Assembly (NCBI GenBank): GCA_044355085.1
Contig: JBIKYU010000002.1
Span: 634-64,633 of the forward strand
Length of the DNA stretch: 64,000 nucleotides
Direction of reading: 5' to 3'
Origin: Rickettsiales bacterium
GTDB lineage: Bacteria > Pseudomonadota > Alphaproteobacteria > Rickettsiales > JBIKYU01
The notes under the pieces were generated by a model, which saw nothing but the letters and a program-made list of their open reading frames with translations, was not told where the DNA came from and searched no databases. A program made the translations under genes and the position numbers. Below, one piece after another: positions 2,526-63,590 of the stretch. Position 1 is the stretch's first letter; the number at the start of each line of letters is the position of its first letter.

Positions 2526-3107
2526 TCAAGGATTTTCAAAATGCTTTCTTGCCGCTTTGAAATATGCATAGCCAGTAACAACCGTAAGAACGGCGGAAAC
2601 CCAGAGCAGTATGCGCCCGAGTAATTCTGTCAAAGACATCTTCACCACATGCTCAACTTCGTCCAAACTCGGGCCTTCTATTCCCCACAACAACAAAAAA
2701 AGCGCAGCCATTTGCGTTGCCGTTTTTATTTTTGCCAGACGCGAAACAGGAACACTAATTCGCAATTCCGCCAGAAATTCTCGCAAGCCAGAAACTAAAA
2801 TCTCACGACATAAAATTGTTACCGCGGCTAACACTTCAAAACGGCCAATACTTCCAACATGCACCAACATTACAATCGCTGCTGCCACTATTAATTTATC
2901 CGCTATTGGGTCAAGAAATCTGCCAAAACTACTTTGCACCTTCATCGCCCGCGCCAAATAGCCATCGAAAAAATCAGTAATGCTTGCTAGCAAAAATAAG
3001 CTTGCTGCAATCCAGTGATAGAGCTTGCTTTCCAAATAAAATGACGCAATCAAAATTGGAATAATCGCAATTCGCGACAAAGTTAGAATATTTGGTAATT
3101 GCCGCAT
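2526..3107 (-). CDS. pgsA: CDP-diacylglycerol--glycerol-3-phosphate 3-phosphatidyltransferase
   Basis: CDP-alcohol phosphatidyltransferase motif DGYLAR...GRFLDPIADK, with PgsA size and TM pattern. Confidence 0.88.
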   Translation of the reverse strand: MRQLPNILTLSRIAIIPILIASFYLESKLYHWIAASLFLLASITDFFDGYLARAMKVQSSFGRFLDPIADKLIVAAAIVMLVHVGSIGRFEVLAAVTILCREILVSGLREFLAELRISVPVSRLAKIKTATQMAALFLLLWGIEGPSLDEVEHVVKMSLTELLGRILLWVSAVLTVVTGYAYFKAARKHFENP

Positions 3108-3125
3108 AAGATTTTTTCTCCAAAA

Positions 3126-4922: not shown

Positions 4923-5796
4923 AGCCTTGAAAAAACAGCGCCGCAGTCAAATCAGTATAATTTATCTGCGCGCGCAAAACCTCTTGCAGAGCAGGTTTCG
5001 CGTAATACGCCACACCAAGCCCCGCCGCTTGTAACATGGGCAAATCATTTGCACCATCACCAAGAGCAATAATTTCTGCCGCGTCTAAATTTTGTTCTGT
5101 TTGATATTTACGCAAGAATTCCACTTTGCTTTGTTTATCAAGAATTGGCAACTGCACATTACCAGTTAATTTACCTGCAGAAATTTCCAGCTCATTCGCG
5201 TGCTGCGCGTGGAAACCAGCTTCTTGCGCCACTTTTTCTGTGAAAAAAGTAAAGCCCCCGGAAACTAAAACGCATTTAGCCCCATTTGCCGCCATAGTTT
5301 TTACTAAACATTCAGCGCCCTTATTCAGCCGAATTCGCTCTTGATAAACTTGCAAAAGCGCAGCTTCAGGCAAATCTTTAAGCAGCGCCACGCGCTCATT
5401 CAGCGCAGTATTAAAATCAAGCTCTCCGCACATTGCGCGCTCGGTTATTTCTGCGACTTTTGCTTTGATCCCAACTTTATCCGCCAATTCATCGATACAT
5501 TCCTGACCAATTATTGTTGAATCCATATCTGAAATCAGAAGTTTTTTCTTTCGCGCTAGAACTGGCTGAATCAGCCAATCACAAGGCGCGTCTTTTAATC
5601 GTTCGCTGATTTTTAAATATGCTTCCTCCGCCTCGATCTCACTCCAGAAAATATCACAAGCGCGATCCTCGCCCAACCAGCTGAGTTTTTGCACTCTGCC
5701 GCCTTTGCGCTCCAGCGTTTGAATTACTCGATTGAGAAAAACATCATCTAACTTTAAAACGCTAGGATTCGTGACAATCGTCAAAACAAAAGACAT
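4876..5796 (-). CDS. serB: Phosphoserine phosphatase
   Basis: HAD motif I DMDSTIIGQECIDELA and C-terminal GDGANDLPM. Confidence 0.88.
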   Translation of the reverse strand: MSFVLTIVTNPSVLKLDDVFLNRVIQTLERKGGRVQKLSWLGEDRACDIFWSEIEAEEAYLKISERLKDAPCDWLIQPVLARKKKLLISDMDSTIIGQECIDELADKVGIKAKVAEITERAMCGELDFNTALNERVALLKDLPEAALLQVYQERIRLNKGAECLVKTMAANGAKCVLVSGGFTFFTEKVAQEAGFHAQHANELEISAGKLTGNVQLPILDKQSKVEFLRKYQTEQNLDAAEIIALGDGANDLPMLQAAGLGVAYYAKPALQEVLRAQINYTDLTAALFFQGYAENEWVGKKNESGK

Positions 5797-38610: not shown

Positions 38611-39684
38611 TTACAATTTTTTATTTTTCAGCGCATAGACATAGCGAATCACATCCGCAACCGCCTGATAATGCTCGAGCGGAATTTCTTCATCTATATC
38701 AGCGCTGCGATATAGAGCCTGCGCAAGCGGCGGATTTTCGACGATAGGAATCTCATTTTCCTCGGCAATTTCACGAATTTTTAGAGCGACAAAATCCTGC
38801 CCCTTAGCAACCACTTTTGGCGCCGCCATACGCTCCATATTATAAGCAAGCGCAATGGCAAAGTGCGTTGGGTTAGTGATTACCACATCAGCCTCGGGAA
38901 CTGCTTGCATCATGCGGTTTCTAGCGCGCTCTTGTCGTAACTCACGCAGCTTTGATTTTATCTCTGGGCTACCTTCGGTTTGCTTATATTCATCGCGAAT
39001 ATCTTGTCGGCTCATGCGCAAATTTTGTCGATATTTTAGGCGCTCATAAATTAAATCTAGAACCGCCAGAACCGCCATTACGATTGCAGCGCCAATCAGC
39101 ACGCGCTTGCTCAAGCTTTGCAGAAAAATCATTAAGCCATTTAGCGAGCCGCTTATCAGCTGCTCCATCATCGGCAAAAGCGGATTAATCGCCATCACCG
39201 CCACCGAGCCAACCAAAATTAATTTGACCAACCCTTTGATAAAATCAACCAAAGACCTGCTCGAAAACAAACGCTTAAATCCTTCAACAATAGATATGCG
39301 CGACGCTTTTGGCATAATCGCTGAAGGCACAATTCTGAAGCCATTTTGCGCAATTGCCGCAACCACAACAACTGCTGCTAAAATAATCATTGGTATCAAT
39401 AAAATCGGCGCAATTTTTTGTAAAATATCGATCAAAACTCCCACCGCATTTTCATGCGATATTTCCAGCAAATCTGCATCTTGAATAAACACGCGCATGC
39501 TTAAGAAAGTTTTTTTCATCGCTTGCGGCATCCACATTATCACCAAAATTGTGAGCACCGATAAAATCAGAAAATGATTTATTTCTCTTGCGATTGGCAC
39601 ATTGCCTTTTTCTTGCGCATCGTCTAGGCGCTTTTGCGTTGGCTCTTCGGTTTTCTGCGATTCATCTTGATCATCACCAGACAC
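38611..39684 (-). CDS. flhB: Flagellar type III export protein FlhB
   Basis: EKTEEPTQKRLDDAQEKGNV start, four TM segments and the autocleavage site NPTHFA. Confidence 0.93.
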   Translation of the reverse strand: MSGDDQDESQKTEEPTQKRLDDAQEKGNVPIAREINHFLILSVLTILVIMWMPQAMKKTFLSMRVFIQDADLLEISHENAVGVLIDILQKIAPILLIPMIILAAVVVVAAIAQNGFRIVPSAIMPKASRISIVEGFKRLFSSRSLVDFIKGLVKLILVGSVAVMAINPLLPMMEQLISGSLNGLMIFLQSLSKRVLIGAAIVMAVLAVLDLIYERLKYRQNLRMSRQDIRDEYKQTEGSPEIKSKLRELRQERARNRMMQAVPEADVVITNPTHFAIALAYNMERMAAPKVVAKGQDFVALKIREIAEENEIPIVENPPLAQALYRSADIDEEIPLEHYQAVADVIRYVYALKNKKL

Positions 39685-40458
39685 TTACATTCCCCCACCA
39701 GGAAGCCACATCAAAGCTGATTCCTCAGCTCGCGCCAAGAACCACAGCATCATTGAAGATACAAACATAATCAGAGTTATTAAACCGCCAGCAATTTGTA
39801 CTGGTAAACTGATGAAGAAAATATTCAGCTGCGGCATTAATCTTGCTAAAATTCCGCCCACCAACGCAATCAAAAAACCAACAATTAAATTAGGAACCGA
39901 GAGCTGCAGCGCCAGCGCAAAACTTTCTTGTGTTTTTTGGCTGATAAACTCTGACCAATCTGCAATTGGTAGAATTTCTCCTGGCACAAAAACCGCGTAA
40001 CTACTAACCACGCCGCGCAGCCAAGCATGATGTAAATCCATCGCAAACGCCGCCGCTAACGCAGTAAGAGAAAGCAAAACGCCAATTTCCGACCCTTGCG
40101 ATTGTTGCGCCGGATCAAACATGCTGCCCGATGCCAAACCCATATGCATAGCAATCATCATGCCCAAACTATGTAGCGCAGAGAATAAAATCCGCACCGA
40201 TATTCCCATAAAAAAACCGATCAAAATTTCTTTGATCAGCAGAAATAAAACCATAAGCATTGAAGCAGGAATCACCCCAGGCAATTTTACCGACAATTGC
40301 GGCAACAGCAGCAAAACCGCACCAACTGCGAACCATAGCCGCGCACGGCTAAAAATATATGACTCAGAAAAACCAGGAAGAACCACAAACATCGTGCCCA
40401 CACGCGCCATTATCATCAGCGCATGAAAAACTGTCAGCTCGGTAATTTCTGTAAACAT
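39685..40458 (-). CDS. fliR: Flagellar export apparatus protein FliR
   Basis: A 257-aa polytopic membrane protein lying between fliQ and flhB, with its stop adjacent to the flhB start. Confidence 0.88.
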   Translation of the reverse strand: MFTEITELTVFHALMIMARVGTMFVVLPGFSESYIFSRARLWFAVGAVLLLLPQLSVKLPGVIPASMLMVLFLLIKEILIGFFMGISVRILFSALHSLGMMIAMHMGLASGSMFDPAQQSQGSEIGVLLSLTALAAAFAMDLHHAWLRGVVSSYAVFVPGEILPIADWSEFISQKTQESFALALQLSVPNLIVGFLIALVGGILARLMPQLNIFFISLPVQIAGGLITLIMFVSSMMLWFLARAEESALMWLPGGGM

Positions 40459-40551
40459 TTTTATACCAATTGAGCTTTACTAGACTTAAATAATTCGCAG
40501 AAATGATTGTTATAAAATAACAAAAATATTTTATAGAAGACTTTAAAAGAA

Positions 40552-40821
40552 TCATTCATCTGAATGAACGATTCTCTCCGCCAATCTTTCCGTAAGTCGC
40601 GCCACATGGCCGCCAATAAAGGGAAAGAACACAATCAGCACGACAAAAACTACAACAATTTTTGGCACAAACGTCAATGTGGTTTCCTGAATTTGCGTCA
40701 AGGCCTGAAACAGGGAAATCAGCAAACCAACCGCCATTGCTGAAAGCAAAACTGGAGCCGCAATCAACAGCAAAACCGAAAAAGCATCGCGCGCTACTTC
40801 GAGCGCTTCCATTGATGTCAT
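40552..40821 (-). CDS. fliQ: Flagellar export apparatus protein FliQ
   Basis: An 89-aa two-TM protein (MTSMEALEVARDAFSVLLLIAAPVLL...QIQETTLTFVPKI). The start is at Met65 of the track ORF. Confidence 0.9.
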   Translation of the reverse strand: MTSMEALEVARDAFSVLLLIAAPVLLSAMAVGLLISLFQALTQIQETTLTFVPKIVVVFVVLIVFFPFIGGHVARLTERLAERIVHSDE

Positions 40822-40867
40822 TCTTTTCCCCGAATTCAAAAAATTTTTAGCTGCTTTATAAAAAGCG

Positions 40868-40947
40868 AAACTGCGTTTTGCATCGCTCGTAAAAAGTACG
40901 TGAGAAGCGAAGCGTAACAAAACTGCGTTTTGCATCGCTCGTAAAAA
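40868..40947. repeat. 28-nt direct repeat x2 (period 52 nt) in the fliE-fliQ spacer
   Basis: AAACTGCGTTTTGCATCGCTCGTAAAAA occurs identically at 40868-40895 and 40920-40947. Confidence 0.85.
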
Positions 40948-40963
40948 ACTATATGCGAAAAAA

Positions 40964-41269
40964 CTAGACTGGCATGCGAATAATTTCTTGCAAAGCCGCA
41001 ACAAACCTATCACGCACGGAAACTAAGGTGCGCAGCTGTAGATCTGCTTGCGTTACTGCTGAGACGAGATCATTGGCGCTTACTTTTTTTGCAACAAAAT
41101 TTTCTGCTGTTACTTCGGCATTGCGAACTGACTGCACGGCATCTGTTATAATATTACGAAATCCTCCCGCCACTTGATCGGCGGAAGAAACTCCCGCATC
41201 GCTGCGCTCGAATTGCATAGAAGAAGCTTGTTTGTAGGCTTGTAGCGCCGCTTGAATATTAGAAGCCAT
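40964..41269 (-). CDS. fliE: Flagellar hook-basal body complex protein FliE
   Basis: About 100 aa with the FliE-type C-terminus LRTLVSVRDRFVAALQEIIRMPV. It follows flgC. Confidence 0.85.
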   Translation of the reverse strand: MASNIQAALQAYKQASSMQFERSDAGVSSADQVAGGFRNIITDAVQSVRNAEVTAENFVAKKVSANDLVSAVTQADLQLRTLVSVRDRFVAALQEIIRMPV

Positions 41270-50844: not shown

Positions 50845-51333
50845 ATGACCACAACAGCTTCCGCGAAAACTTCTTCTAAACGCTCGGCAAAACAAGCTAT
50901 TTCTTCGGCTACAAAATGGTGCGAGGAAAGCGGAATCCGCTTTACTCCTCTGCGTCAGCGCGTTTTTGAAATCATCCAAAAAAGCAAAAAACCAATCAAA
51001 GCTTATGATGTTTTAAGCGCACTTTCTTCAGAAGATGAGTCGGCGAAACCACCAACTGTTTATCGCTCGCTTGAATTTCTACTCGAGCATCATTTGATTC
51101 ATCGCATCGAAACGCAAAATGCTTTCGTTGCCTGCACTGATCCAAGCCTAAATCATCATTGTTACTTTCTAACTTGTTCTGAATGTAATGCTGTTGAAGA
51201 AATGCGCAGCCAATCTCTGCAACGCAATCTTGCGCAATGCGCTACACACCACGGTTTCAAGACTTCACATTCAATCGTTGAGTGGGTTGGTTCTTGTCGC
51301 TCTTGTCAGAAAAAACAAAAACACTCTGCATAA
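50845..51333 (+). CDS. zur: Fur-family metalloregulator, Zur-like
   Basis: Winged-helix N-domain (KAYDVLSAL...TVYRSLEFLLEHHLIHRIE) with CxxC pairs (CSEC, CRSC). The Zur-versus-Fur assignment is by resemblance only. Confidence 0.75.
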   Translation: MTTTASAKTSSKRSAKQAISSATKWCEESGIRFTPLRQRVFEIIQKSKKPIKAYDVLSALSSEDESAKPPTVYRSLEFLLEHHLIHRIETQNAFVACTDPSLNHHCYFLTCSECNAVEEMRSQSLQRNLAQCATHHGFKTSHSIVEWVGSCRSCQKKQKHSA

Positions 51334-51434: not shown

Positions 51435-51570
51435 CAGCTCCTGGCACTCCTTCTGCTTTGCACTCCTTACGTATCTCCCTTGCGTTCACTGATCGCCAGG
51501 AGCTTCCTTATAAAATCACTCATTTTCAGCGCTGATATTTTCTCAAGTCCTTCATAAAAAAGGACTTCCG
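51435..51570 (+). ncRNA. Candidate small RNA rich in UCCUU motifs
   Basis: It starts just after the promoter-like element. A perfect 10-bp helix forms between AGCTCCTGGC (51436-51445) and GCCAGGAGCT (51495-51504). It contains UCCUU five times and UCCCUU once, including GCACTCCTT twice, and an 8-bp hairpin AAGTCCTT/AAGGACTT (51545-51567). The ends are unknown and no U-tract terminator is seen. Confidence 0.3.
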
Positions 51571-51735
51571 CCACTTACGCGGGCCTTGCTTTTATAGCAT
51601 GGCAAAGTTGAAACACCCAAAAAAACAAACCGTTACAATATAACATTTCTTGGTTTCTAAAAATCAGGAACAGCAATATTTTTGCGGAAGAGAAATTTCT
51701 CCGTTTTATAAATCCAGTTAAAAATATGGAAATTA

Positions 51736-54700
51736 TTACTGATTTTCTTGCCATATTTTTTTGTTATTTTTATTGGCAATATACGAGCTCAAAAACTTCT
51801 CCATTTGATCAAGGCGGAGAGAGCCTTGCAGATCATTTATATCAAGCGCGTTATCTGCTGTTGCGACAAATTCAAATAAATGTTTGCGCGCTTCGTCAGG
51901 TAAATAATCGATAAAATCGCGGCGCAAGCGCTGAAGTTTATCTTGTTTTTTTAGTAGCGTATAAGCAACCGCCAGACGCACAATCTGCGTGCTTTCCGCT
52001 ACGCTCAAAATCCTGTCTTCCCTATAAATACGGCGGAAAGGCGATTCCAGCGCCTCAACTACTCCCGCCCATTCTTTACGTTGCCAATGCACATCTGCGC
52101 GCAAAAATGCTGATTCCAAACTTAGATCGCCCTGCACCATATCGAGAACTTCTTCCAACCTATCCATAGCAAGCAGCGCTTTTGCTTTTAGTTTGCGCCG
52201 ATAAATGGCTCGCTCGGGCTGATTTTCCAAGCGCGATGAATCTGTTGCACGTAAAACTTCTAAAGCCAATTTAGGTTTGCGATTCATCAAATGAATTTCT
52301 GCAAGTCTTGTGCTGACGCGATCTTTTTCTTCCCCGCTTAAACGAAAGCGCACCTGATGCGTAAGCAGCGCTGCTGCACGATCAAGCAAATCAAGATTAA
52401 CAAGACGCTCTGCTAATTTTTGAATCATCTCATCGCCCTGCTGACCAATCGGTGTTAATTCACGAAATTCGTAATACAGAGTTAGAACATTTAACTGTGA
52501 AACTTCTTTTGGCACTTCGCCACGGTTAAAAATTGCTATGAATAATTCACCCATTTTTCTTGCTGTTGCGAGCGCCTCCTCCGAACCTGGAAAACTAGAA
52601 ATTAATTCCCGCCAAACTTTAAATCCCGCCATAAACTGTTTGTCTTCGATATAGAGCTCACCCAATTGCCGCATCACATTCAGCTCTATCACATCGCCGC
52701 GCCAAGCCATGCGCAAATCATTCAAGCGTTTGATTGTTTCTGTACGCTCGATTCTGTGCTGCTGCGTTAAGTAATTTGCCAATGCAAATTGAGCGCGCGC
52801 GCGGTTTTTGCGATCAAGCGGATCTTTCGCCACTTTTTCCCACTCCGCTATTGCGCCTTCTTCATTCTCATCTTTTGCATTAAAAATACCGCGAAAATAG
52901 GAAACAGAATTTGCAAATTCTGGGCGCTCATCCGTACGAAGCTTTGATAAGATTTTTTCTGCTGCATCCAAATCGTTCTTCCGCAAACGCTCATCTAATG
53001 CCACCAAAGCAAAATCATTAAAAAGATAATCAGGATAAAGATTTAGAAAACCCTCAGCGTAAGAAAGAAAATTTGTATTCAGCTTCACTTGATTAGGCAA
53101 GTCCGCACCAGCCCACCACCATTTCACCCGCTTATTTACATCTTCCGTAGAAACATCTGCCACCTTTTCTTCTTTGTCATTTTTATCATTTTTGCCATCA
53201 GCAGGTGATGGCTGAACATCAAGCAATTCCTGATAATGGCGTGCAACAAAGCTTGCTGTTGCGTCCAAAGTTTCTACTTCTTCTGAATTTGCTAAACTCG
53301 GATCTATTTTCCGAATTAATTTCAGTAACCGCGATGAAGTTTCCAAAATCAGACGCGCAGCTTCACGCTTCTCTGCCGTGTCTTTTTCTTTCTCCTCTTC
53401 CTTGCTTCTAAACGCACTAGCATAGGCAGTTTTTCCCATGAACAAGCGATCAAGCTTCAATGCTGCTGACTGTTGCAACTGCGCTGCATTTTTCCAGAAT
53501 TGAACTTCCGCCTGCTGCACTGGAGATAATTTGCTTACATCAATTCTTTCAAATGTTTTATACGCCTCTTCATAGCGAGCCATTAAATATTGGCTTGCGC
53601 CCTTAATTGCCAACACGTCATAAATTGCAACATTTGTATCAATTTGCTGCTCAATTACGCTAGAAACTGCCAAAGATTCCGCCACCAATTGATTTGCCAA
53701 ATAAAAGCGCGCCAGATCCAAACGCTTGCGATTGCGCGCATCAGTTTTTGCCATCACAACATCGCGCTCCATATCGCGCGATGTCTCTGCAAATTCCTCC
53801 TGATCTTTTATTTTTGCCCAACTACGAAAACGAAATAATCCCTCTTCTTTCTGCTCTTGCGCTGCCGATAAAGCTGCTCCTGATGTCGGCGATTCAGAAT
53901 CCGCCCCATCTCCTCCGACAGCAAGAGATTTGGTTAAACGCTGCACAGGCCCAACAAATTGTATGCCATATTTTTGTAGTTCTACTGACACTCCATCAGA
54001 ATATAACTGCGCCACCACACCTTGCTGCGAAGGAAGAAGTTCGAAATCAACTTGCCTGTAGCGATCTTGTAATCCCATTCCTTCCTGAAAAACTGGCAAA
54101 ATAACTAGTTCATCGCCAATTTCTGGATCTAACACACGCAGCATTTTTCCTGCATTACGCAGAGGCACAAACACACTTCCACCAGAAAGCTTGTTGTAAT
54201 TTATACGCACCTCAAGCTGCTCGAGAAGCTCTGTGCGCAGCGGATAAAATTCAACAATCCAGTCATTTTGACGCTGCAAAACTTTTGGCATTGCAGGCCT
54301 TGAAAGAGAAAATCGTAAAATCGTATGTAAGCGATTTGGTACGCGTTCAACTTTTTTAATCAGGTTTTCATTTTTTTTGCGCAGCTCACGCAAATCGAAA
54401 TCGCCATCCTGGTTGAAAACCACCCAAACTACCATTCCACGCCGAAATACCGCCGCAGGAACAGAGCGCTGCCAATTAAATTCCAAAGTGCCAAGCAGAG
54501 TATCTGGAGCAGTGTTTTTATCTTCCTCGGGAACAGGAACAAAAGCTGGCTTTTGTTCCGATACTAAACTTTCATTCTCACTTTCCACAGGATGTGGCAG
54601 CGTTTTATTTTCTGCTGTTTCTGGTATCTGCTCTGCTGTTTCTTCAAGATTTTGATCTTTTGGTGCCTCGGCTTCCGCCTGCTTTTTTTCTTCATCAGCA

Positions 54701-55395
54701 AGAGCATCTGCATTTTTTCTCTCGCCTTCTTCTGTACGAGAGAGCTCCTCTTCTTTCGGCTGTTCTACAGCGCTTGCTGCTGCATTTGTTTCAGCTTCGT
54801 TTTCTGATTTTTCCTCCGCACTTATTTCCTCTGCTGGTTTTTGCTCAGCAGTAGCGCCTGAATAGCTAGTTCCTGAAAGATCTCCAGCCGCCGCTGCTGC
54901 TTGAGTATTTTCAGCCGCCCCGTCTGTTTTTGCCTGCTCGTCACCAACCATCAAAACTGCGCCCGTTCCGCCATCCACACCTTGTGGATTAAAAACATAC
55001 GGACCATTCTTCATCTCAAAAGATAACGCCGTTCCATCTTTGGAAAAATAAACCGACTCGACCAAATCTCCATATTGCTTCATGATTTCCTTAATCTGAT
55101 CTTCGCCGAGAGTAAAAGGCTGCTCACCCGCAAAAGTTAGGCGATTGCCACGCATGCGCGCTTCTAGCGGCAATGGCGGATCAGAAAAAAGCATGATCTC
55201 CAGCGCCCGCCCGTGCCGCTCGATTGTCGCACGCACAAAAGGAAGAGTAAGTTCCTCGCCATCTTGTCCGCGCGCAACTGGGCCGAGCAGAAAAATCGCG
55301 AAAGAAAATCCCAGCAACGCAAAAAGGAAATTTCTTGAACGCATCGCTATGCGCACAAGAAATTTTCTCTCCTGATTTAAGCGTGTTTTTTTCAT
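51736..55395 (-). CDS. 1219-aa signal-anchored protein with an acidic low-complexity linker and a C-terminal TPR-like helical repeat region; function unknown, flagellar-operon encoded
   Basis: Long intact ORF whose ATG overlaps the stop of the upstream MotB-like gene (ATGA). It has the hydrophobic N-terminal segment MRSRNFLFALLGFSFAIFLLGPVARG, an E/A/K-rich region at about aa 160-300, and a helical repeat-like C-terminal half. Confidence 0.8.
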   Translation of the reverse strand: MKKTRLNQERKFLVRIAMRSRNFLFALLGFSFAIFLLGPVARGQDGEELTLPFVRATIERHGRALEIMLFSDPPLPLEARMRGNRLTFAGEQPFTLGEDQIKEIMKQYGDLVESVYFSKDGTALSFEMKNGPYVFNPQGVDGGTGAVLMVGDEQAKTDGAAENTQAAAAAGDLSGTSYSGATAEQKPAEEISAEEKSENEAETNAAASAVEQPKEEELSRTEEGERKNADALADEEKKQAEAEAPKDQNLEETAEQIPETAENKTLPHPVESENESLVSEQKPAFVPVPEEDKNTAPDTLLGTLEFNWQRSVPAAVFRRGMVVWVVFNQDGDFDLRELRKKNENLIKKVERVPNRLHTILRFSLSRPAMPKVLQRQNDWIVEFYPLRTELLEQLEVRINYNKLSGGSVFVPLRNAGKMLRVLDPEIGDELVILPVFQEGMGLQDRYRQVDFELLPSQQGVVAQLYSDGVSVELQKYGIQFVGPVQRLTKSLAVGGDGADSESPTSGAALSAAQEQKEEGLFRFRSWAKIKDQEEFAETSRDMERDVVMAKTDARNRKRLDLARFYLANQLVAESLAVSSVIEQQIDTNVAIYDVLAIKGASQYLMARYEEAYKTFERIDVSKLSPVQQAEVQFWKNAAQLQQSAALKLDRLFMGKTAYASAFRSKEEEKEKDTAEKREAARLILETSSRLLKLIRKIDPSLANSEEVETLDATASFVARHYQELLDVQPSPADGKNDKNDKEEKVADVSTEDVNKRVKWWWAGADLPNQVKLNTNFLSYAEGFLNLYPDYLFNDFALVALDERLRKNDLDAAEKILSKLRTDERPEFANSVSYFRGIFNAKDENEEGAIAEWEKVAKDPLDRKNRARAQFALANYLTQQHRIERTETIKRLNDLRMAWRGDVIELNVMRQLGELYIEDKQFMAGFKVWRELISSFPGSEEALATARKMGELFIAIFNRGEVPKEVSQLNVLTLYYEFRELTPIGQQGDEMIQKLAERLVNLDLLDRAAALLTHQVRFRLSGEEKDRVSTRLAEIHLMNRKPKLALEVLRATDSSRLENQPERAIYRRKLKAKALLAMDRLEEVLDMVQGDLSLESAFLRADVHWQRKEWAGVVEALESPFRRIYREDRILSVAESTQIVRLAVAYTLLKKQDKLQRLRRDFIDYLPDEARKHLFEFVATADNALDINDLQGSLRLDQMEKFLSSYIANKNNKKIWQENQ

Positions 55396-56138
55396 GAGGT
55401 CCTACGAATTACAATATCGATAGTTGCCGCATTAGTATTTTCCTCACGTTTCTTTTCTCCGAGAGTTTTACCAGGCGCACTTCCATATACACCCAAAGTG
55501 CGCGTTCCATTTCTTTGTTCTAACTCACGCGCCAGAGTCATTGCTCGCGCCAAAGAAAGCTCCCACAGGCTTGGCCATTCTGGCAAAGAATTTTCTGACT
55601 CTGAAATATCTACCGCACCAACAATTTCAATTGGTGTATCCAAGCGATAAAGCATCTGCGCTAATTGCAAAATAATTGGCTGCGCCGCTTCATTTATTTT
55701 TACTACCCCACCAGCAAACACTAGAGAAACTGGCAATGACAGCCGCAATCTATCTCCCTCCAAAGAAACATGCGCATGCTGTTGTAGAAGCGGAACATTA
55801 TTTAAAGCCTGCCGCCAAACTGCATAGGTATATTCTAGATTGACCTCATGCAAAACTGGAACTTTTGCGTCTCCAAGCACCATGGTTTCTGATTTTAAGA
55901 ACGCGCCTTCAGCGCCTCCTTTTGGATTAAATTTCGTCGCTAACGAGCCAGAGATTTCCTTCCATTTTGACTGCTCCATAACTGAAGATGCATACATCAG
56001 CAAAAAAAACGCCAACAATAAAGAGATCATATCAGCGAAAGAAACCATCCAAATATCATTAGATTGCTCTCCATCTTCTGGCTCGCGCGGCTTTTCTAAA
56101 AATTCTAAAATAGGTTTTTGCGGATTTTTATCTGACAT
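55392..56138 (-). CDS. MotB-like membrane protein with degenerate OmpA-like C-terminal domain
   Basis: The TM segment SFADMISLLLAFFLLMYA resembles the MotB plug/channel helix, including the Asp. The C-terminus IEIVGAVD...LSLARAMTLARELEQ resembles a diverged OmpA/MotB peptidoglycan-binding domain. Confidence 0.65.
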   Translation of the reverse strand: MSDKNPQKPILEFLEKPREPEDGEQSNDIWMVSFADMISLLLAFFLLMYASSVMEQSKWKEISGSLATKFNPKGGAEGAFLKSETMVLGDAKVPVLHEVNLEYTYAVWRQALNNVPLLQQHAHVSLEGDRLRLSLPVSLVFAGGVVKINEAAQPIILQLAQMLYRLDTPIEIVGAVDISESENSLPEWPSLWELSLARAMTLARELEQRNGTRTLGVYGSAPGKTLGEKKREENTNAATIDIVIRRTS

Positions 56139-56146
56139 TTTTTTTC

Positions 56147-56830
56147 CTAATCCGCATGTTTCTTTGTGCTGTCGCGCACATTGAAAGTAAAATAAACCAA
56201 CGGCGGCAATGCCTCCATAGGTGAAGAAAATTCACTCCGCAAAACATCTGGAGAAATAACTCCTGATGTAATTTGCGACTCGCTCGCACCAAGATTTATA
56301 AGCTTTCTTGCCACCGCACCTGCATCAAATAACGCCGCCGCTGCAGCAGAAGAAGAAAGATCTCGCGCCTCGCCTTCAAAAAATCCTGGCAGAACCAAAG
56401 CCACATCAACTGCGGCTTCAACTCCTGCTGTTGTGCTTGTTAGCAAGTGTGCCAGCTCGATAAAAAAATTCTCCGCTGATTTTTGTGTCACATGATTATA
56501 AGGATCGATGACCATTTCATATGGAACCACCAGACGCATCACTCTGCCATCGACACTACTCTGCAAAAAAAGCTGCGGCAAATTTCCTTGCGCAGCCGCA
56601 CCAATTTCCGAAAAAAAATCCCTAACCTGCTGCTGAAAAGTTAGTGGCTTTTGTCCTGGTACAACACCAGGATAACCAAGCTTGTTCGAGCTTCCAAACG
56701 CCTGCCTAACGCCACCTACAGCCTGCTGCATCAATTTAGCATCACGCCTAGCTAACGTTGTTAGTAACATAAAAAATACCAACAACAGCAAAAGCAGAGA
56801 GACAAAAGAAACCATCCAGCGTTGCTGCAT
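56147..56830 (-). CDS. Hypothetical single-TM protein with MotB-N-terminus-like helix lacking the channel Asp
   Basis: MQQRWMVSFVSLLLLLLVFFMLL, followed by a periplasmic region of about 190 aa with no motif I recognise. Its ATG immediately follows the motE-like stop. Confidence 0.6.
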   Translation of the reverse strand: MQQRWMVSFVSLLLLLLVFFMLLTTLARRDAKLMQQAVGGVRQAFGSSNKLGYPGVVPGQKPLTFQQQVRDFFSEIGAAAQGNLPQLFLQSSVDGRVMRLVVPYEMVIDPYNHVTQKSAENFFIELAHLLTSTTAGVEAAVDVALVLPGFFEGEARDLSSSAAAAALFDAGAVARKLINLGASESQITSGVISPDVLRSEFSSPMEALPPLVYFTFNVRDSTKKHAD

Positions 56831-57608: not shown

Positions 57609-58322
57609 TTATGCCATCTGCGCATTTCCGTAACCAAGCGCACGCAGCATATTTTCAACTGGATCATTAGAGCGAGAGCGTGTTTTAGAATCTTGTAATT
57701 GCGCTTGCGCCTGTGTTTTATCTTTTTTATCAATTTTTTTATCGAAAGAATTTTCTGTTTTTGCTGGTGGCAAAATTCTTTTTACAGATAAAATTTCCTG
57801 TTTTTGTAACTGCTCTTCTTCCCGCTCTTTTGATTCTAATTTTTCTGAAACACGCTTAAGCAAAGCCTCAAGCGCAAAGCGTTTCTGCTCTGTTTTTACC
57901 GCTGGCTTTTCAATTTCATTTGCATCAAAAACTGAAGAACGCTGAGAAATCATCACAGGCATTGTGGCCATTTGCTGATTTTTTCTCGCCTGTTGCTCCA
58001 ACGGCCTTGCAGCACGAATCGCCACTTCAAGCGCGTTAATAGAATTTTGCGCGCGGTCATTTATGTAGTGCAAATCACCAACTTGCGCCTGCGCCAATTC
58101 GAGATTTTTTGCTAAATGCGTTCCCACATATTCGCTAGTTTGTTTAAGCTCGCGAATACTTTCTTGCGCGCGCTTCACCGTTTCATCCAGACGCTTACAC
58201 AGCGCAAGCATTTCTCCTTTGCTTGTGTGCATGTTTTTCATGCGCTTAAGCACCAGTAAAACATAGCAAACTGTTGTGACCATCATCAGCAACAAAACCG
58301 CATCAAAAATCATCCCCGTCAT
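57609..58322 (-). CDS. Hypothetical N-terminally anchored coiled-coil protein (possibly DUF6468-type), translationally coupled to fliM
   Basis: One TM (IFDAVLLLMMVTTVCYVLLVL), then a heptad-rich helical region. The ATG overlaps the fliM stop (ATGA at 58319-58322). Confidence 0.6.
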   Translation of the reverse strand: MTGMIFDAVLLLMMVTTVCYVLLVLKRMKNMHTSKGEMLALCKRLDETVKRAQESIRELKQTSEYVGTHLAKNLELAQAQVGDLHYINDRAQNSINALEVAIRAARPLEQQARKNQQMATMPVMISQRSSVFDANEIEKPAVKTEQKRFALEALLKRVSEKLESKEREEEQLQKQEILSVKRILPPAKTENSFDKKIDKKDKTQAQAQLQDSKTRSRSNDPVENMLRALGYGNAQMA

Positions 58323-59392
58323 AAAGCCTCCTTAAGTCTTTTATTTAGTATTTCCTGTACAGAAATCGCCATTGAATCTTCAACACGACCAATTTTTCCT
58401 GATAAAACCTCTACGCCTCGACAGCGCACTATCACTGGATCTTCAGGTTTTTGATCAAGCAAAAGAGTGTTCCCAACCTTCAAATGCATCACGTCTTTCA
58501 GCAGCGCCCGTCTACGACCAAGCAACGCCTCAACTTCAACCGAAGTGCCGTAGATTTCTCTGCCCAAATGCATTTCCCAAGCCGTATCTTTACCGAATTT
58601 TTCACCCATAAAAACTTGCGTGAGCAATTCTTTGATTGGCTCCAAAGTTACATAAGGAAACATGATTTCTATATTGCCGCCGCGCTCTTCCATATCAACG
58701 CGCAATTGTAATAATATAACAGCATCTGAAGGATGAGAAATTGTCGCAAAACGCGGATTAACCTCCATGCGCTCAAAGCGGAAAGTGGCAGGGCTCAGCG
58801 GATCAAAAGCCGCCCCCATATCGGCCAAAACCAAATCGCTGATATAGCGAATAACACCCTGTTCAATTGAAGTGTATGGCCTTCCCTCAATGCGAATTGG
58901 TCGATTTGATTTTCTACCACCAAACAACACATCAACCATTGAGTAAACCAACGATCCGTTGAAAGTTATGATGCCAAAATTTTCCCACTCCACTGCTTTA
59001 AAAATCGATAGTAACGCTGGCATAGGAATTGAATTCACATAATCGCCAAAACGCAATGATGTTATCGAGTGAATATCAACATCGACATTGTCTGCTGTAA
59101 AATTACGCAATGACGTAGAAAGCATGCGCACGAACCGATCAAAAACCACCTCCAACATCGGCAAGCGCTCGTAGGAAAGCAGCGCTTTATCAAGCATCGC
59201 TTCTATTCCAGTTTTTACTTGCTCTTGCTCAACGCGACCACCATCGAAACCAAGAAGATTATCTATCTCTTCTTGCGTCAATGCGCGACCAGCCTCTCCC
59301 GCTTCATCAGCAGAATCAGCCGCAGCAGCGGCAGCGATTGCCGCTCGCTCCGCCTCATCAGATATTTGAGAAATTTCAGCTTCTTCTGCCAT
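58319..59392 (-). CDS. fliM: Flagellar motor switch protein FliM
   Basis: N-terminal CheY-P-binding-type motif LTQEEIDNLLGF, a FliM middle domain and a C-terminal SpoA-like domain. Confidence 0.92.
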   Translation of the reverse strand: MAEEAEISQISDEAERAAIAAAAAADSADEAGEAGRALTQEEIDNLLGFDGGRVEQEQVKTGIEAMLDKALLSYERLPMLEVVFDRFVRMLSTSLRNFTADNVDVDIHSITSLRFGDYVNSIPMPALLSIFKAVEWENFGIITFNGSLVYSMVDVLFGGRKSNRPIRIEGRPYTSIEQGVIRYISDLVLADMGAAFDPLSPATFRFERMEVNPRFATISHPSDAVILLQLRVDMEERGGNIEIMFPYVTLEPIKELLTQVFMGEKFGKDTAWEMHLGREIYGTSVEVEALLGRRRALLKDVMHLKVGNTLLLDQKPEDPVIVRCRGVEVLSGKIGRVEDSMAISVQEILNKRLKEAL

Positions 59393-59499
59393 CGGGAGCG
59401 TTCTCTGTCCTTATATTGATCCGCCACACCTACCTGGAAACAAAAACGCACGACCTACATTGTCGCGCCTGAATATTTTTTAGAAATGCCCTTTAAAAT

Positions 59500-60111
59500 T
59501 TACTGCACTAGAATTTCTTTGAACAAAATGTCATGCACCTTCACAGGATAAATCACTTTATTGATACGAAGTAACAACTCCTCACGCAGACGATAAATCC
59601 CCGCAGATCCCTGCAAATCATCAGCCCTAAGCTCGCGCAAATAAACCTGGAAACTATCACGAATACGCGGAAGCTTCGCTTCAACTTCCGGAATTTGTAA
59701 TTCTCCTGCAAGCTCAAGCGAAACGGTCATCTTCAAAAAACTCGGCCTTTTACCGCCAACATTTAAATTCACGATGAACTCTTCTAGATCATAATAAACT
59801 TGGCGATTCGCAACGCCGCCAGCCACAGAACCTGCCCCACCCTCAGCCATAGCAGCTGGATCTGCAGCACCATCTACCTCAACTGAAGTTTCAACCGCAG
59901 CAACTTCTTTTCCCAAAAGCCGGTCCAAAAATCCGAAAAAATAAAGCGCCGCACCCGCACCAACAATCAGCAAAATAAGAGCGACCAAAACGATGATCAG
60001 AATTTTTTTTCTACCGCCACCAGCAGGAGCTTCTCCACCTACGGCAATTTCACCTTCTTGCGCAGAACCTTCCTCTGTAACAGCAGTAGTATCGTTATTA
60101 TCTGCCACCAT
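59500..60111 (-). CDS. fliL: Flagellar basal body-associated protein FliL
   Basis: A single TM (ILIIVLVALILLIVGAGAALYFF) and a FliL C-terminal domain (FLKMTVSLEL...IRDSFQVYLR...LREELLLRIN). It lies upstream of fliM. Confidence 0.85.
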   Translation of the reverse strand: MVADNNDTTAVTEEGSAQEGEIAVGGEAPAGGGRKKILIIVLVALILLIVGAGAALYFFGFLDRLLGKEVAAVETSVEVDGAADPAAMAEGGAGSVAGGVANRQVYYDLEEFIVNLNVGGKRPSFLKMTVSLELAGELQIPEVEAKLPRIRDSFQVYLRELRADDLQGSAGIYRLREELLLRINKVIYPVKVHDILFKEILVQ

Positions 60112-60410: not shown

Positions 60411-60542
60411 TATACTAGTGCACGATGTTTCTAAAAAATATCGGCTTGCACGTAGCATTCATCATCAGCTTTTTTGACGAAACTCAAGAAAGCTTTGGCA
60501 CGTAGCCTCCCTCAAAAAATGCATCGCCAGAGGGCGCGCGCT

Positions 60543-61265
60543 ATGAGCAATACCAATTATGTTTTGCTGGCAAAACAACAAGCGAATCTCATTCACATGG
60601 ATCGCGTTGCCGACAACATGGCCAACGCCAACACTGTTGGTTTTAAATCTGAGCACGATGTTTTTAAATCGCATCTTGTGCCGATCAAAAATGGTGAAAA
60701 TATTTCTTACGGAACTTTTGGCTTCACACGCCGCGACGCGTCTACAGGTCCGATGCAAGTAACGGAACGCCCACTTGATGTGGCGATTCAAGGCACTGGT
60801 TTTTTCAAAGTACAAACTCCTCAAGGCGAGCGCTACACCCGCGCAGGAAACTTCGCCATCGATAATGACGGCAGATTAGTTACTCAAGATGGCTATGCGG
60901 TTATGGGCGCAGGCGGTGGCGGCGTAAATCTTCTGCCTGAAGACACCAACATCAGCATTCGCGACGATGGCACAGTTTTTTCTGGTGAAAATGAACGCGG
61001 TCGCATTGGCGTTTTTGATGTTGGCGATCCACAAGAATTAACTCGCGTTGGTAATAATCTTCTTCTGTCTTCGTCTGGCGATTCTCTAAGCGAGAGCAGC
61101 GTTCTGCAGCAGGGAATGCTTGAAGGATCAACCGTCAGCGCCGTCACCGAAATGTCGCAAATGATTAGCGCCTCACGCGAATATCAATTGATAAACGGGC
61201 TGCTCCGCCAATTGCAGGGCGTCTCTTCGCAAATGGGTCAACGCCTAGTCAACGCTCAGGTTTAA
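60543..61265 (+). CDS. flgF: Flagellar basal-body rod protein FlgF
   Basis: The rod N-terminal motif RVADNMANANTVGFK and a rod C-terminus. I placed the start at Met24 of the track ORF (MSNTNYVLL), with AGAGGG 8 nt upstream. Confidence 0.9.
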   Translation: MSNTNYVLLAKQQANLIHMDRVADNMANANTVGFKSEHDVFKSHLVPIKNGENISYGTFGFTRRDASTGPMQVTERPLDVAIQGTGFFKVQTPQGERYTRAGNFAIDNDGRLVTQDGYAVMGAGGGGVNLLPEDTNISIRDDGTVFSGENERGRIGVFDVGDPQELTRVGNNLLLSSSGDSLSESSVLQQGMLEGSTVSAVTEMSQMISASREYQLINGLLRQLQGVSSQMGQRLVNAQV

Positions 61266-61280
61266 TTTGGAGTTTTACTC

Positions 61281-62069
61281 ATGCTTGCTTTAATGACCGC
61301 CGCAACTGGAATGTCCGCAGCAGAAACGCAAGTTGATGTTATCGCGAACAATCTTGCCAACCAAAACTCAACTGCGTTCAAGCGTCGCCGCGCTAGTTTT
61401 TCTGATTTGATTTATCAGAACAAAGTAACTGTTGGCGCACAAACATCAGACACTGGAACCATTCGCCCAGTTGGTGTTCAGGTTGGTCTTGGTGTGAATA
61501 CTGGCGCTGTTTATATGCTTCCAGAACAAGGAACTTTAAGCAAAACAGATGGTCGCTTTGATATTGCTCTAAACGGCAAAGGTTACTTCCGCGTAACGCT
61601 TCCAGATGGATCAGAAGTTTATACGCGCGACGGCTCTTTCAAAACTAATGCTGATGGAGAAATTGTCACCAAAGATGGCTTTACTGTATCGCCAGGAATA
61701 AGCGTTCCCGCAACCACAGAAGAAATTAGTATCAATGCCAGCGGTGAAGTCTTAGCCAAAATTGCTGGTGCGACCGAGCTACAAAATTTAGGCCAATTTG
61801 TTGTGGTAAATTTCATCAATGAAATGGGCCTTGAATCGCGCGGAAACAACTACATGAGCGAAACTCCAGCCTCTGGAAATCCAATAGATGGCATCGCCGG
61901 ACAAGAAGGTTTGGGCGAGCTTTTACAAGGTTGGCTGGAAGGTTCAAACGTCAATCCCGTAACTGAATTAACCGATCTAATCAAGGCGCAGCGCGCTTTT
62001 GAATTCAACACCAAAATCGTACAAAAAACTGATGAAAACATGCGCAGTCTTACACAAATAGTTGGATAG
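61281..62069 (+). CDS. flgG: Flagellar basal-body rod protein FlgG
   Basis: VIANNLANQNSTAFKR and the C-terminus LEGSNVNPVTELTDLIKAQRAFE, 262 aa. Confidence 0.95.
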   Translation: MLALMTAATGMSAAETQVDVIANNLANQNSTAFKRRRASFSDLIYQNKVTVGAQTSDTGTIRPVGVQVGLGVNTGAVYMLPEQGTLSKTDGRFDIALNGKGYFRVTLPDGSEVYTRDGSFKTNADGEIVTKDGFTVSPGISVPATTEEISINASGEVLAKIAGATELQNLGQFVVVNFINEMGLESRGNNYMSETPASGNPIDGIAGQEGLGELLQGWLEGSNVNPVTELTDLIKAQRAFEFNTKIVQKTDENMRSLTQIVG

Positions 62070-62093
62070 TTTTTTAAAATTAAAGGAACTCTT

Positions 62094-62810
62094 ATGCCTC
62101 GCTTTTTCTTTTTTCTATTTGCATTTATTTTCTTTGCCCAAGCACATGCAGAATCACCATCGGCAAATAAAATGTTGACCGCATGGCGCGAGAAAATTGA
62201 AGAAAAAATTCTCGAACAAGAACCAGAATTATCACGCGCAATAATCGATATAAATTCTCCATCAAATGAAGAGCTGGAAAATTTATCGCCTGAAGAATGG
62301 ACGCTTGATCAATTTTCTCTCACACCTAAATCAAAACAATTTCAGGGGCTTTTAATTTCAAGCTCCGCTGACAAGCGCCCATTGCCAGTTAAAGGCCGCG
62401 CTGAAATTTGGGTGCGCATTCCTACTCTTTCGCAATCTCTTCCTGCGCGCGCATTAATTAAAGCTGAAAATATCCAGCTTACTGAAATTCCTTTTTCGCG
62501 CATCACCGCCAATACAATTCGTGATGAAAATAAATTAATCGGAAAAATTCTCACTCGCTCAATAATGGCTCTTTCTGCTTTGCGCCAACAAGATGTCAAA
62601 GAACCAATTTTAGTTTCCAGAAAAAATCTTGTTGATGTTGTTTATCAAACCGATCACGTCGAATTGCGCCTACAAGCTATCGCTCTAGAAGATGGGAAAT
62701 TAGGCGATAATATTCGCGTACAAAATACCAACAGCCAAAAAATTATTGTTGGCCGCATTGCTGCTGACTCAACCATTCGCATGAATTCTCCGACAAAATC
62801 TTCTCTATAA
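62094..62810 (+). CDS. flgA: Flagellar basal body P-ring formation chaperone FlgA
   Basis: Signal peptide and a C-terminal SAF-like segment (GKLGDNIRVQNTNSQKIIVGRI). It lies between flgG and flgH. Confidence 0.8.
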   Translation: MPRFFFFLFAFIFFAQAHAESPSANKMLTAWREKIEEKILEQEPELSRAIIDINSPSNEELENLSPEEWTLDQFSLTPKSKQFQGLLISSSADKRPLPVKGRAEIWVRIPTLSQSLPARALIKAENIQLTEIPFSRITANTIRDENKLIGKILTRSIMALSALRQQDVKEPILVSRKNLVDVVYQTDHVELRLQAIALEDGKLGDNIRVQNTNSQKIIVGRIAADSTIRMNSPTKSSL

Positions 62811-62825
62811 AAAGGCGCTCTCACA

Positions 62826-63590
62826 ATGTCTAAAAACTCAATTTCAAAACGCTGCTTTGTTTCATTATTTTTACTGCTTGGCAGTAGCTCATTAACTGGC
62901 TGTCAAGACCAGATAGAGCGCCTAAACCGCATAGGCAGCACACCAAAAATCGATAAAATGACCATGCCTGAAGAAGCTTCAAACTACGAAACGATTCAAT
63001 GGCCACACGGAAATGACACTTCAAAACCAAATCCAAGTTCGCTGTGGCAACCTGGTTCTTTTTCTTTTTTCAAAGATCGTAAAGCCCGCCAAGTCGGAGA
63101 TATTCTGCGCGTCTCCGTCAAAGTAAAAGACAAAGCACAATTAGATAGCTCCGCCACACAAACGCGCGGCGCGAAAGAAACCGCAACCGCTCCATCAGCA
63201 CTTGGGCTTGAGAAATTAGCTACAGGCTGGCTACCAGGAAAAGCGGTGCTTTCAGATCTCATAAATGTTGATGGCTCACGTAATCACACAGGCACAGGAA
63301 AAATCGATCGCGGAGAAACAATCGAAACTGAAGTTGCGGCAATGGTTACGCAAATTCTTCCCAACGGCAATCTAGTAATTCACGGCGACCAAGAAATTCG
63401 CGTTAATTCCGAACTCAGAAAAATCACCATCAGCGGAATTGTTCGCGCCGAAGATATTGGCGCGGACAACGCCATAAACTCTAGCCAAATTGCGCAAGCG
63501 CGCATTTCATACGGCGGAAAAGGTCAGCTAACTGATACGCAACAACCGCGCATCGGCCATCAAATTATCGATGCAATCTCGCCGTTTTAA
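62826..63590 (+). CDS. flgH: Flagellar L-ring lipoprotein FlgH
   Basis: Lipobox LTGC, DRKARQVGDILRV, and ISGIVRAEDIGADNAINSSQIAQARISYGGKG. Confidence 0.92.
   Translation: MSKNSISKRCFVSLFLLLGSSSLTGCQDQIERLNRIGSTPKIDKMTMPEEASNYETIQWPHGNDTSKPNPSSLWQPGSFSFFKDRKARQVGDILRVSVKVKDKAQLDSSATQTRGAKETATAPSALGLEKLATGWLPGKAVLSDLINVDGSRNHTGTGKIDRGETIETEVAAMVTQILPNGNLVIHGDQEIRVNSELRKITISGIVRAEDIGADNAINSSQIAQARISYGGKGQLTDTQQPRIGHQIIDAISPF

Follow-up and report, generated by a model that had tools for sequence, protein, structure and literature searches.

A giant gene ends a flagellar operon in a little-studied, flagellated, uncultured alphaproteobacterial lineage, represented here by a Rickettsiales bacterium (GenBank assembly GCA_044355085.1). 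We analyzed positions 634 to 64,633 of its contig JBIKYU010000002.1, a stretch of 64,000 nucleotides referred to below as the window. The 1219-aa product of the gene is probably a Sec-exported periplasmic scaffold of the PflA/MotK/FssB class that partners with MotE, the E-ring protein whose gene lies three positions upstream. It has the features of this class: an AMIN-like beta-sandwich, a long unstructured linker, an extended C-terminal superhelix of tetratricopeptide repeats (TPR), and a gene that shares an operon with a MotE homologue in a flagellar cluster. What we observed is the architecture of the protein, its family, its linkage to the operon, and a conserved overlap of its gene with a motB-like gene; localization, partners, and mutant phenotype are inferred from the homologous systems. 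The original prediction, made from the letters of the window, had proposed an undescribed periplasmic motor or stator scaffold, or an analogue of MotC. The architecture, the MotE/MotB context, and synteny at 53 of 60 related loci support that proposal. The word "undescribed" has to be dropped: the FssB, MotK, and PflA class is already published (PMC7885107, PMC10954123, PMC12054838, PMC11870540, PMC13023049), and the giant protein belongs to this class rather than to a new system.

Open reading frame (ORF) calling and translation confirmed the predicted 1219-aa ORF on the minus strand, as well as its overlap with the upstream gene. In the ATGA at 55392-55395, the ATG of the giant gene (55393-55395) overlaps the TGA (55392-55394) of a 248-aa MotB-like gene. 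The giant gene is the last of seven co-directional genes, which run in the order fliL, fliM, a DUF6468 (PflI-like) gene, a MotE/FlbB-like gene, a MotB paralogue without the proton-binding Asp, the MotB-like gene, and the giant gene. The spacings in this order are 107, -4, 58, 0, 8, and -4 bp, in agreement with the range of -4 to 107 bp given earlier. The giant gene is terminal because the genes found next, coding for a Fur-family protein (50845-51333), Hsp33, and aconitase, lie on the opposite strand. The MotE homologue had been placed two genes upstream of the giant gene; it is in fact three genes upstream, with two MotB-like genes in between. The MotE-like protein is the presumed E-ring partner of the giant protein, and its homologue in Marinovum carries the annotation FlbB. 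The DUF6468 protein is tentatively equated with PflI by gene position alone; the gene at this position of the operon has been called a PflI homologue (PMC10954123).

We evaluated how well this gene order is kept by searching related loci with the window neighbor proteins (tblastn; 60 loci with at least 8 kb of upstream sequence). fliL, fliM, and motE were found upstream on the same strand at 53 of the 60 loci, which bears out the linkage expected across alphaproteobacterial genomes. A divergent flgG was present at 48 loci, and a MotB-like gene lay upstream of the giant gene at 46. In mechanical ORF calls, the stop of the motB-like gene overlapped the start of the giant gene by 4 nt at 18 distinct loci. 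In Devosia, Micropepsaceae, and a Rhizobium-like metagenome-assembled genome (MAG), the giant gene directly follows motE, an arrangement like that of CC_2059-CC_2058 in Caulobacter.

The giant protein belongs to a very large family. An exhaustive profile search returned 9008 representative proteins at E≤1e-3; at the stricter limit of E≤1e-30, the family still counts 3557 representative clusters at 50% identity. With thousands of homologues, the giant ORF is not a product of chance. Nearly all of the best 150 members were 1000-1400 aa long, and most of them aligned end to end. No model in Pfam or NCBIfam covers the family. Among 40 proteins scanned (39 homologues and the window protein), individual TPR models matched up to 20, AMIN-like models 10, and AMIN 7. 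Most members have two N-terminal AMIN-like domains, whereas the window protein has one.

In a scan of genomes, the number of relatives was at least 565. Among the best 80 loci, the closest relatives (43% identity) came from MAGs labelled Alphaproteobacteria, Rickettsiales, or Rickettsiaceae, and the next closest from Rhodospirillales, Ferrovibrio, Thalassospira, Sneathiella, Terasakiella, Micropepsaceae, Parvibaculaceae, and Methylocystaceae. Metagenomic protein matches added members from Devosia and Xanthobacteraceae. No Caulobacter locus was among the best 80 of the genome scan, and word-indexed protein searches, which returned mostly unnamed metagenomic proteins and MAG entries, yielded no Caulobacter or Cereibacter entry. 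FliM of the closest MAGs was about 70% identical to that of the window. A 272-aa fragment (P0236) on a 1.1-kb JGI metagenome contig was 100% identical to the matching part of the giant protein; the local BLASTP alignment spans 64% of the 402-residue C-terminal segment used as the query.

One relative is short and comes from a cultured organism. Plasmid pAB510e of Azospirillum sp. B510 (NC_013859.1, 123541-125877; minus strand, 3042-5378 of the extracted locus L088) encodes a 778-aa "hypothetical protein" that, searched as a single sequence, matched the hidden Markov model of the family at 7.5e-65. Its signal peptide is followed by a single AMIN-like domain, a proline-rich linker, and TPR, without the middle module described below, and its gene lies directly upstream of motA-motB.

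The structure of the giant protein was predicted with AlphaFold2 as two models, of residues 1-560 and 541-1219, from a 46-sequence alignment. The mean predicted local distance difference test score (pLDDT) was 71 for the N-terminal model; the C-terminal model had a mean pLDDT of 80.4 and a predicted template modeling score of 0.68. The N-terminal model starts with a helix (residues 2-36) followed by a beta-sandwich. In a Foldseek search of this model against the PDB, only 3jc8 came near significance (E 3e-3, probability 0.89); this is PilQ, which carries AMIN domains. The family profile matched the AMIN region of PilQ at E 0.03, and the Pfam AMIN and AMIN-like matches counted above fall in the corresponding domains of homologues. 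We therefore regard this domain, as modelled, as AMIN-like with moderate confidence.

The low-complexity linker that follows, disordered at residues 154-290 of the model, agrees with the acidic E/A/K/T-rich segment of about 140 aa noticed earlier. Its D+E content is 27%, its net charge is -25, and its most frequent residues are E32/A26/K11/T10/S10. The closest relatives P0041 and P0049 also have a linker, of other composition; its presence is conserved and its sequence is not. Beyond it lie two consecutive beta domains (residues 300-385 and 397-481 in the model), which form the best-conserved and best-modelled part of the family and carry the invariant residues R319, D423, and P424. Only the first half of this double beta module (M1) is recognizably AMIN-like: it aligns to the N-terminal AMIN-like domain (hhalign, probability 97%, E 4e-11) and is homologous to it. 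A profile of the module (M1 and the second half, M2) had no match in PDB sequences or Pfam.

The C-terminal half had been read as degenerate TPR or helical repeats, and all of the repeat motifs quoted for it are present in the translation. The model shows an all-helical solenoid whose Foldseek matches in the PDB are TPR superhelices, in line with that reading. Low confidence in this half is limited to a clade-specific insertion and the last 35 residues. The insertion is missing in P0001-P0007 and common to P0041 and P0049. Motifs kept in the family include WRGD (898-900) and FRELTP..GDxMI..LAxRLVxxDLLDxAA (about 977-1008). Ranked second among the Foldseek matches (E 2.4e-6) was 9hmf_K, from the motor scaffold of Campylobacter jejuni, which had the highest query TM-score (0.31) and was the best bacterial match. 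We take 9hmf_K to be PflA because its 773 residues equal PflA 16-788 as modelled in PMC12222027.

The original prediction had suggested profile searches against known families. Pfam and NCBIfam scans of the giant protein returned only sub-threshold ANAPC3, TPR_6, and DUF4120, so that it falls in no family of either database, but the family profile matched consensus TPR at 2e-11. Among PDB chains, the family profile retrieved nothing beyond generic TPR proteins, BamD, and the weak PilQ match; the C-terminal half, used by itself as a sequence query, had no match there.

The basic stretch and single hydrophobic segment predicted for the N terminus are both present; the quoted sequence MRSRNFLF..., however, begins at Met18 and not at the overlapping start. 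The latter adds MKKTRLNQERKFLVRIA before MRSRNF, with Met18 as an alternative start at 55344. AGGA stands 4 nt upstream of the ATG at 55395 and no such motif precedes Met18; thus, the ATGA-overlapping start is plausible. By hydropathy, residues 23-38 are the sole hydrophobic stretch of the giant protein. This 16-residue h-region is followed by P-V-A-R-G/Q (the slash marks the putative cleavage site). By its sequence, the N terminus resembles a cleavable Sec signal, the kind reported for MotK and FssB, although it may also be an anchor, as the original prediction had it.

The two MotB-family genes that precede the giant gene are paralogues (BLASTP of the 227-aa against the 248-aa protein, 5e-7). 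In the 248-aa protein, the proton-binding Asp (WMVSFADMI) was kept in all 18 sequences compared. This protein matched MotB/PomB in the PDB down to 2e-11, and its NCBIfam MotD/MotB scores were far below the cut-offs. In the 227-aa paralogue, Ser, Ala, Gly, or Cys replaces the Asp in the window and at 15 of 17 related loci; loci with the MotB pair include L001, L005, L013, L016, L024, and L047. Judged by this replacement, the paralogue would be a conserved pseudo-MotB, incapable of canonical proton conduction. No motA was found among the window ORFs scanned.

We next compared the giant protein with published systems; its placement beside CC_2058, MotK, and MotC rests on shared architecture, gene position, and the literature. 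FssB (CC_2058, or CCNA_02137) of Caulobacter crescentus has a Sec signal and a TPR region, and its deletion, which acts in the stator pathway, leaves cells flagellated but paralyzed (PMC7885107). CC_2058 lies directly downstream of the MotE-like CC_2059 (PMC11870540, PMC13023049), and an N-terminal AMIN-like fold has been reported for its product (PMC10954123). The TPR region, the AMIN-like fold, and probably the signal are common to FssB and the giant protein, and the Devosia, Micropepsaceae, and Rhizobium-like loci of the family share the direct adjacency of motE and the giant gene. The fuller order fliL-fliM-pflI, with a divergent flgFGAH, presumably also surrounds CC_2058. The two systems differ in that a pair of MotB-family genes separates motE from the giant gene in the window, whereas the papers report none between CC_2059 and CC_2058, and in that the window protein adds the clade-specific 130-aa insertion and the acidic linker. 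The top-ranked literature on fssB, CC_2058, and CCNA_02137 contained no follow-up beyond the 2021 study; the rest were unrelated uses of the acronym.

MotK of the Cereibacter sphaeroides Fla2 system is a 652-aa protein, encoded by the last gene of fliL2-pflI-motE-motA2-motK, in which disordered linkers accompany an AMIN-like fold at the N terminus and a TPR-like domain (PMC10954123). It is periplasmic and essential for rotation, binds MotE and MotB2, and depends on MotAB for its localization to the flagellated pole, while MotAB do not depend on it (PMC10954123). Its authors had already named CC_2058, along with further large genes that follow motE or motA, among its distant homologues, and they found no BLAST similarity between MotK and CC_2058-type proteins (PMC10954123). 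The giant protein shares with MotK the AMIN-like domain, the disordered linker, the TPR-like helices, and the position of its gene at the end of a motE operon. In contrast, MotK is about half the size and its gene follows motA, whereas the giant gene follows motB; the double beta module (296-486) is not among the features of MotK described in PMC10954123. The 778-aa Azospirillum relative has a MotK-like layout and is a clear homologue of the window family.

As shown by cryo-EM and cryo-ET, PflA of C. jejuni and Helicobacter pylori consists of a beta-sandwich, a linker, and 16-17 TPRs and forms a spoke between the E-ring of FlgY, a MotE homologue, and the stator-holding PflB rim (PMC12222027, PMC11870540, PMC12054838). 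The AMIN-like beta-sandwich, the unstructured linker, and the solenoid of about 17 hairpins are alike in PflA and the giant protein. PflA differs in its length of 788 aa and its single beta domain and has no detectable sequence similarity to the window family; no PflB-like transmembrane-TPR rim protein or cage genes were seen in the window operon. It has been proposed that MotK, MotC, CC_2058, and FlcA/B are PflA/PflB homologues, that PflA, MotK, MotC, and CC_2058 act in different phyla as partners of a FlgY/MotE/FlbB E-ring, and that this system is ancient and widespread (PMC12222027, PMC12054838, PMC11870540, PMC13023049). FlcA and FlcB of Borrelia burgdorferi are TPR-rich periplasmic proteins that sit on a hub of FlbB, a MotE homologue, and are needed for stator assembly (PMC13023049). 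They resemble the giant protein as periplasmic TPR proteins on a MotE-homologue hub, a likeness drawn from their description, and differ in belonging to another phylum and to a multi-protein collar.

MotC of Sinorhizobium meliloti, as summarized in PMC13023049, is a MotE-dependent periplasmic TPR protein that acts on MotB; it has no AMIN domain (PMC13023049). The giant protein, likewise TPR-rich and probably periplasmic, is linked to MotE and MotB by its operon. MotC is about 430 aa long, and its gene belongs to a motB-motC-fliK operon at a distance from motE. We rejected MotC proper as an identity of the giant protein, which has 1219 aa and contains beta domains, and whose gene is followed by the Fur, Hsp33, and aconitase genes and by no fliK-type gene. 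FliK was rejected as well: Pfam and NCBIfam scans found no Flg_hook (FliK_C) domain, and the C terminus is a TPR solenoid.

Several observations weigh against the scaffold assignment. The match to PilQ and AMIN is marginal (E 3e-3). A Foldseek match to PflA had been suggested as a check and was indeed obtained, but it is unspecific: eukaryotic TPR superhelices were equal in score, and the TM-scores were only 0.2-0.3. The giant protein itself gives TPR matches in Pfam only below threshold. Moreover, some related flagellar clusters, such as those on Roseobacter plasmids, have motE without a giant-type neighbor; therefore, the partnership is not obligatory in cis. The Roseobacter clusters (L085 from Marinovum algicola pMaD5, L086, L087, L089, and L090) read fliL-fliM-(PflI-like)-motE, and in none of them does a TPR/MotK-like gene follow motE. 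The MotE partner of this flagellar type is either encoded elsewhere or absent.

It is improbable that the giant protein is instead a soluble periplasmic factor of the MotC type, with MotE acting mainly as a chaperone and transient binding to MotB opening or activating the proton channel without any fixed spoke or ring. In its favor, MotE of S. meliloti stabilizes MotC and has been interpreted as its chaperone (summarized in PMC13023049), translational coupling links the giant gene to a MotB-family gene and not to motE, and ring geometry is not derivable from sequence. However, MotE-GFP reaches the motor independently of MotK (PMC10954123, PMC13023049), and a fixed spoke is the role of PflA, which gave the best fold match in bacteria (PMC12222027). 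A protein of about 1200 aa with a 17-hairpin solenoid, from a family with up to three AMIN-like domains, also fits a structural scaffold better than a diffusible activator. There is very little to recommend a hub that, like FimV/HubP or TipN, marks the pole or anchors to peptidoglycan and that would, together with the PflI-like DUF6468 protein, position the flagellum rather than power it. FimV and HubP combine a peptidoglycan-binding-type domain, a very acidic low-complexity region, and TPR-like repeats, and the corresponding parts of the giant protein recall them. A PflI-like gene is present in the operon, and PflI is a positioning factor in Caulobacter according to work cited in PMC10954123. 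Yet LysM and FimV had no Pfam match in the giant protein or in the other 39 proteins scanned, and the sole hydrophobic segment is N-terminal, which would make the acidic region periplasmic and not cytoplasmic as in HubP. Cells lacking fssB build filaments and are nevertheless paralyzed (PMC7885107), and it is MotK whose localization depends on MotA/MotB, not the reverse (PMC10954123).

Less credible still is a general envelope TPR protein, of the CpoB/YbgF, BamD, or LpoA kind, whose gene merely happens to end a flagellar operon. The housekeeping genes for Fur, Hsp33, and aconitase do follow the giant gene, and the family profile has weak matches to BamD (4e-5), CpoB, and LpoA, but these matches cover generic TPR repeats only. 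The linkage with fliL, fliM, motE, and motB, kept at 53 of 60 loci across several alphaproteobacterial orders, argues strongly against such a protein, as does the conserved motB/giant-gene overlap. Among the rivals, a MotC-like activator is more plausible than a polar hub, which in turn is more plausible than an unrelated envelope TPR protein.

If the giant protein is a scaffold of the PflA/MotK/FssB class, its solenoid of about 17 hairpins would form a radial spoke docking on a MotE ring around the MS-ring. The AMIN-like domain, the acidic linker, and the double beta module would reach outward and could contact peptidoglycan, the periplasmic part of the co-translated MotB-family protein, or both. 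Stator units might thereby be recruited, held, or switched on, and loss of the giant protein would be expected to leave assembled but paralyzed flagella.

The size and coherence of the long-form family, the double beta module, the motB overlap, and the Asp-less MotB paralogue go beyond the cited literature. We consider it possible, if rather doubtful, that the long form (1000-1400 aa), the double beta module, and the motB/pseudo-MotB pair together constitute a distinct alphaproteobacterial stator cage, in which one polypeptide would serve as both PflA spoke and PflB rim and the pseudo-MotB as a structural mimic or regulator. The scaffold assignment offers a function-level name for a very large family (at least 3557 clusters) whose members are still labelled "hypothetical" or "TPR protein". 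It also presents the E-ring/spoke module, which has been proposed to be ancient, as a fixed operon block (fliL, fliM, pflI-like, motE, motB', motB, scaffold) across Rhodospirillales, Rickettsiales-labelled MAGs, Hyphomicrobiales, and others. How stators are recruited or locked in alphaproteobacterial motors is a question to which the double beta module and the Asp-less MotB are relevant; to our knowledge, there is as yet no in situ structure of such a motor with assigned components.

Table 1. Features of the giant gene, its product, and the surrounding flagellar genes in the window
Feature	Coordinates	Strand	Basis
Giant gene, 1219 aa, probable PflA/MotK/FssB-class periplasmic AMIN-TPR protein	51736..55395	-	ORF, homologues of 1000-1400 aa, synteny
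Residues 1-43: basic n-region (net +8), hydrophobic segment 23-38, putative VARG/Q signal-peptidase site	55267..55395	-	Hydropathy
N-terminal AMIN-like beta-sandwich, residues 44-152	54940..55266	-	AlphaFold2 strands 53-150, pLDDT 80-94
Acidic disordered E/A/K/T-rich linker, 143 aa, residues 153-295	54511..54939	-	pLDDT 30-45
Double beta module, residues 296-486 (M1 296-392, AMIN-like; M2 393-486)	53938..54510	-	pLDDT ~97
TPR-like alpha-solenoid, residues 546-1219, ~34 helices (~17 hairpins)	51739..53760	-	AlphaFold2, all helical
Clade-specific solenoid insertion of ~130 aa, residues 641-775	53071..53475	-	Low to medium model confidence
MotB-family protein, 248 aa, TM/plug, conserved Asp, degenerate OmpA-like domain	55392..56138	-	Pfam MotB_plug 2.5e-17
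MotB paralogue, 227 aa, Ser in place of proton-binding Asp	56147..56830	-	Pfam MotB_plug 1.3e-6
MotE/FlgY/FlbB-like protein, 239 aa	56831..57550	-	NCBIfam collar_FlbB 2.2e-7, Pfam MgtE_N 7.7e-4, both below cut-off
DUF6468 protein, 237 aa	57609..58322	-	Pfam DUF6468 3.8e-12
fliM	58319..59392	-	Pfam FliM 5e-57, FliMN_C 3e-16
fliL, first gene of the operon	59500..60111	-	Pfam FliL 1.4e-21
Putative flgF-flgG-flgA-flgH, divergent from fliL	60474-63590	+	ORFs; homologues at related loci
Possible terminator acting on both strands, located where the giant gene and the Fur-side genes converge	51555..51583		Weak, pattern-level

The names of the divergent flgF, flgG, flgA, and flgH genes rest on annotated homologues, which occupy the same divergent position at related loci and carry flagellar-rod, ChapFlgA, and FlgH Pfam annotations.

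The original prediction saw no terminator between the genes of the operon. A terminator-like hairpin does lie in the 107-bp gap between fliL and fliM (59448-59468, minus strand; a 7-bp stem with 5 GC pairs, followed by a T-run, GTTTTTGTTT), but it is weak, and the complete gap is no more structured than its shuffled versions (z = -0.02). The hairpin could attenuate read-through and so set the ratio of fliL to the downstream genes. The possible terminator between the giant gene and the Fur-side genes, recognized at the pattern level only, has a plus-strand reading at 51567-51583 and a minus-strand reading of CCCGCGTAAGTGGCGG...CCTTTTTT. No CtrA box (TTAA-N7-TTAA) was found anywhere in the window; therefore, Caulobacter-style control could not be inferred.

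In many relatives, motE and the MotB pair are separated by two further genes, coding for about 128 and 220 aa (many Rhodospirillales loci, for example L016, L047, L049, L054, and L075); these two genes are not in the window operon. At one locus, L003 (8535-9608), which itself lacks the MotB pair, the two genes are annotated as a CheY-like receiver and CheZ, and at the other loci the same assignment rests on ORF sizes. The flagellar regulon is split in the window. Export-apparatus proteins of the FliQ, FliR, and FlhB families are encoded at 38611-41013 on the minus strand, about 11 kb from the operon, and the interval contains housekeeping and cell-wall genes, for an SLT transglycosylase, an RlpA-like DPBB/SPOR protein, a PBP5-type carboxypeptidase, ccmA/ccmB, aconitase, Hsp33, and Fur. 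In L001 and L004, fliP and other export-apparatus genes abut the giant gene.

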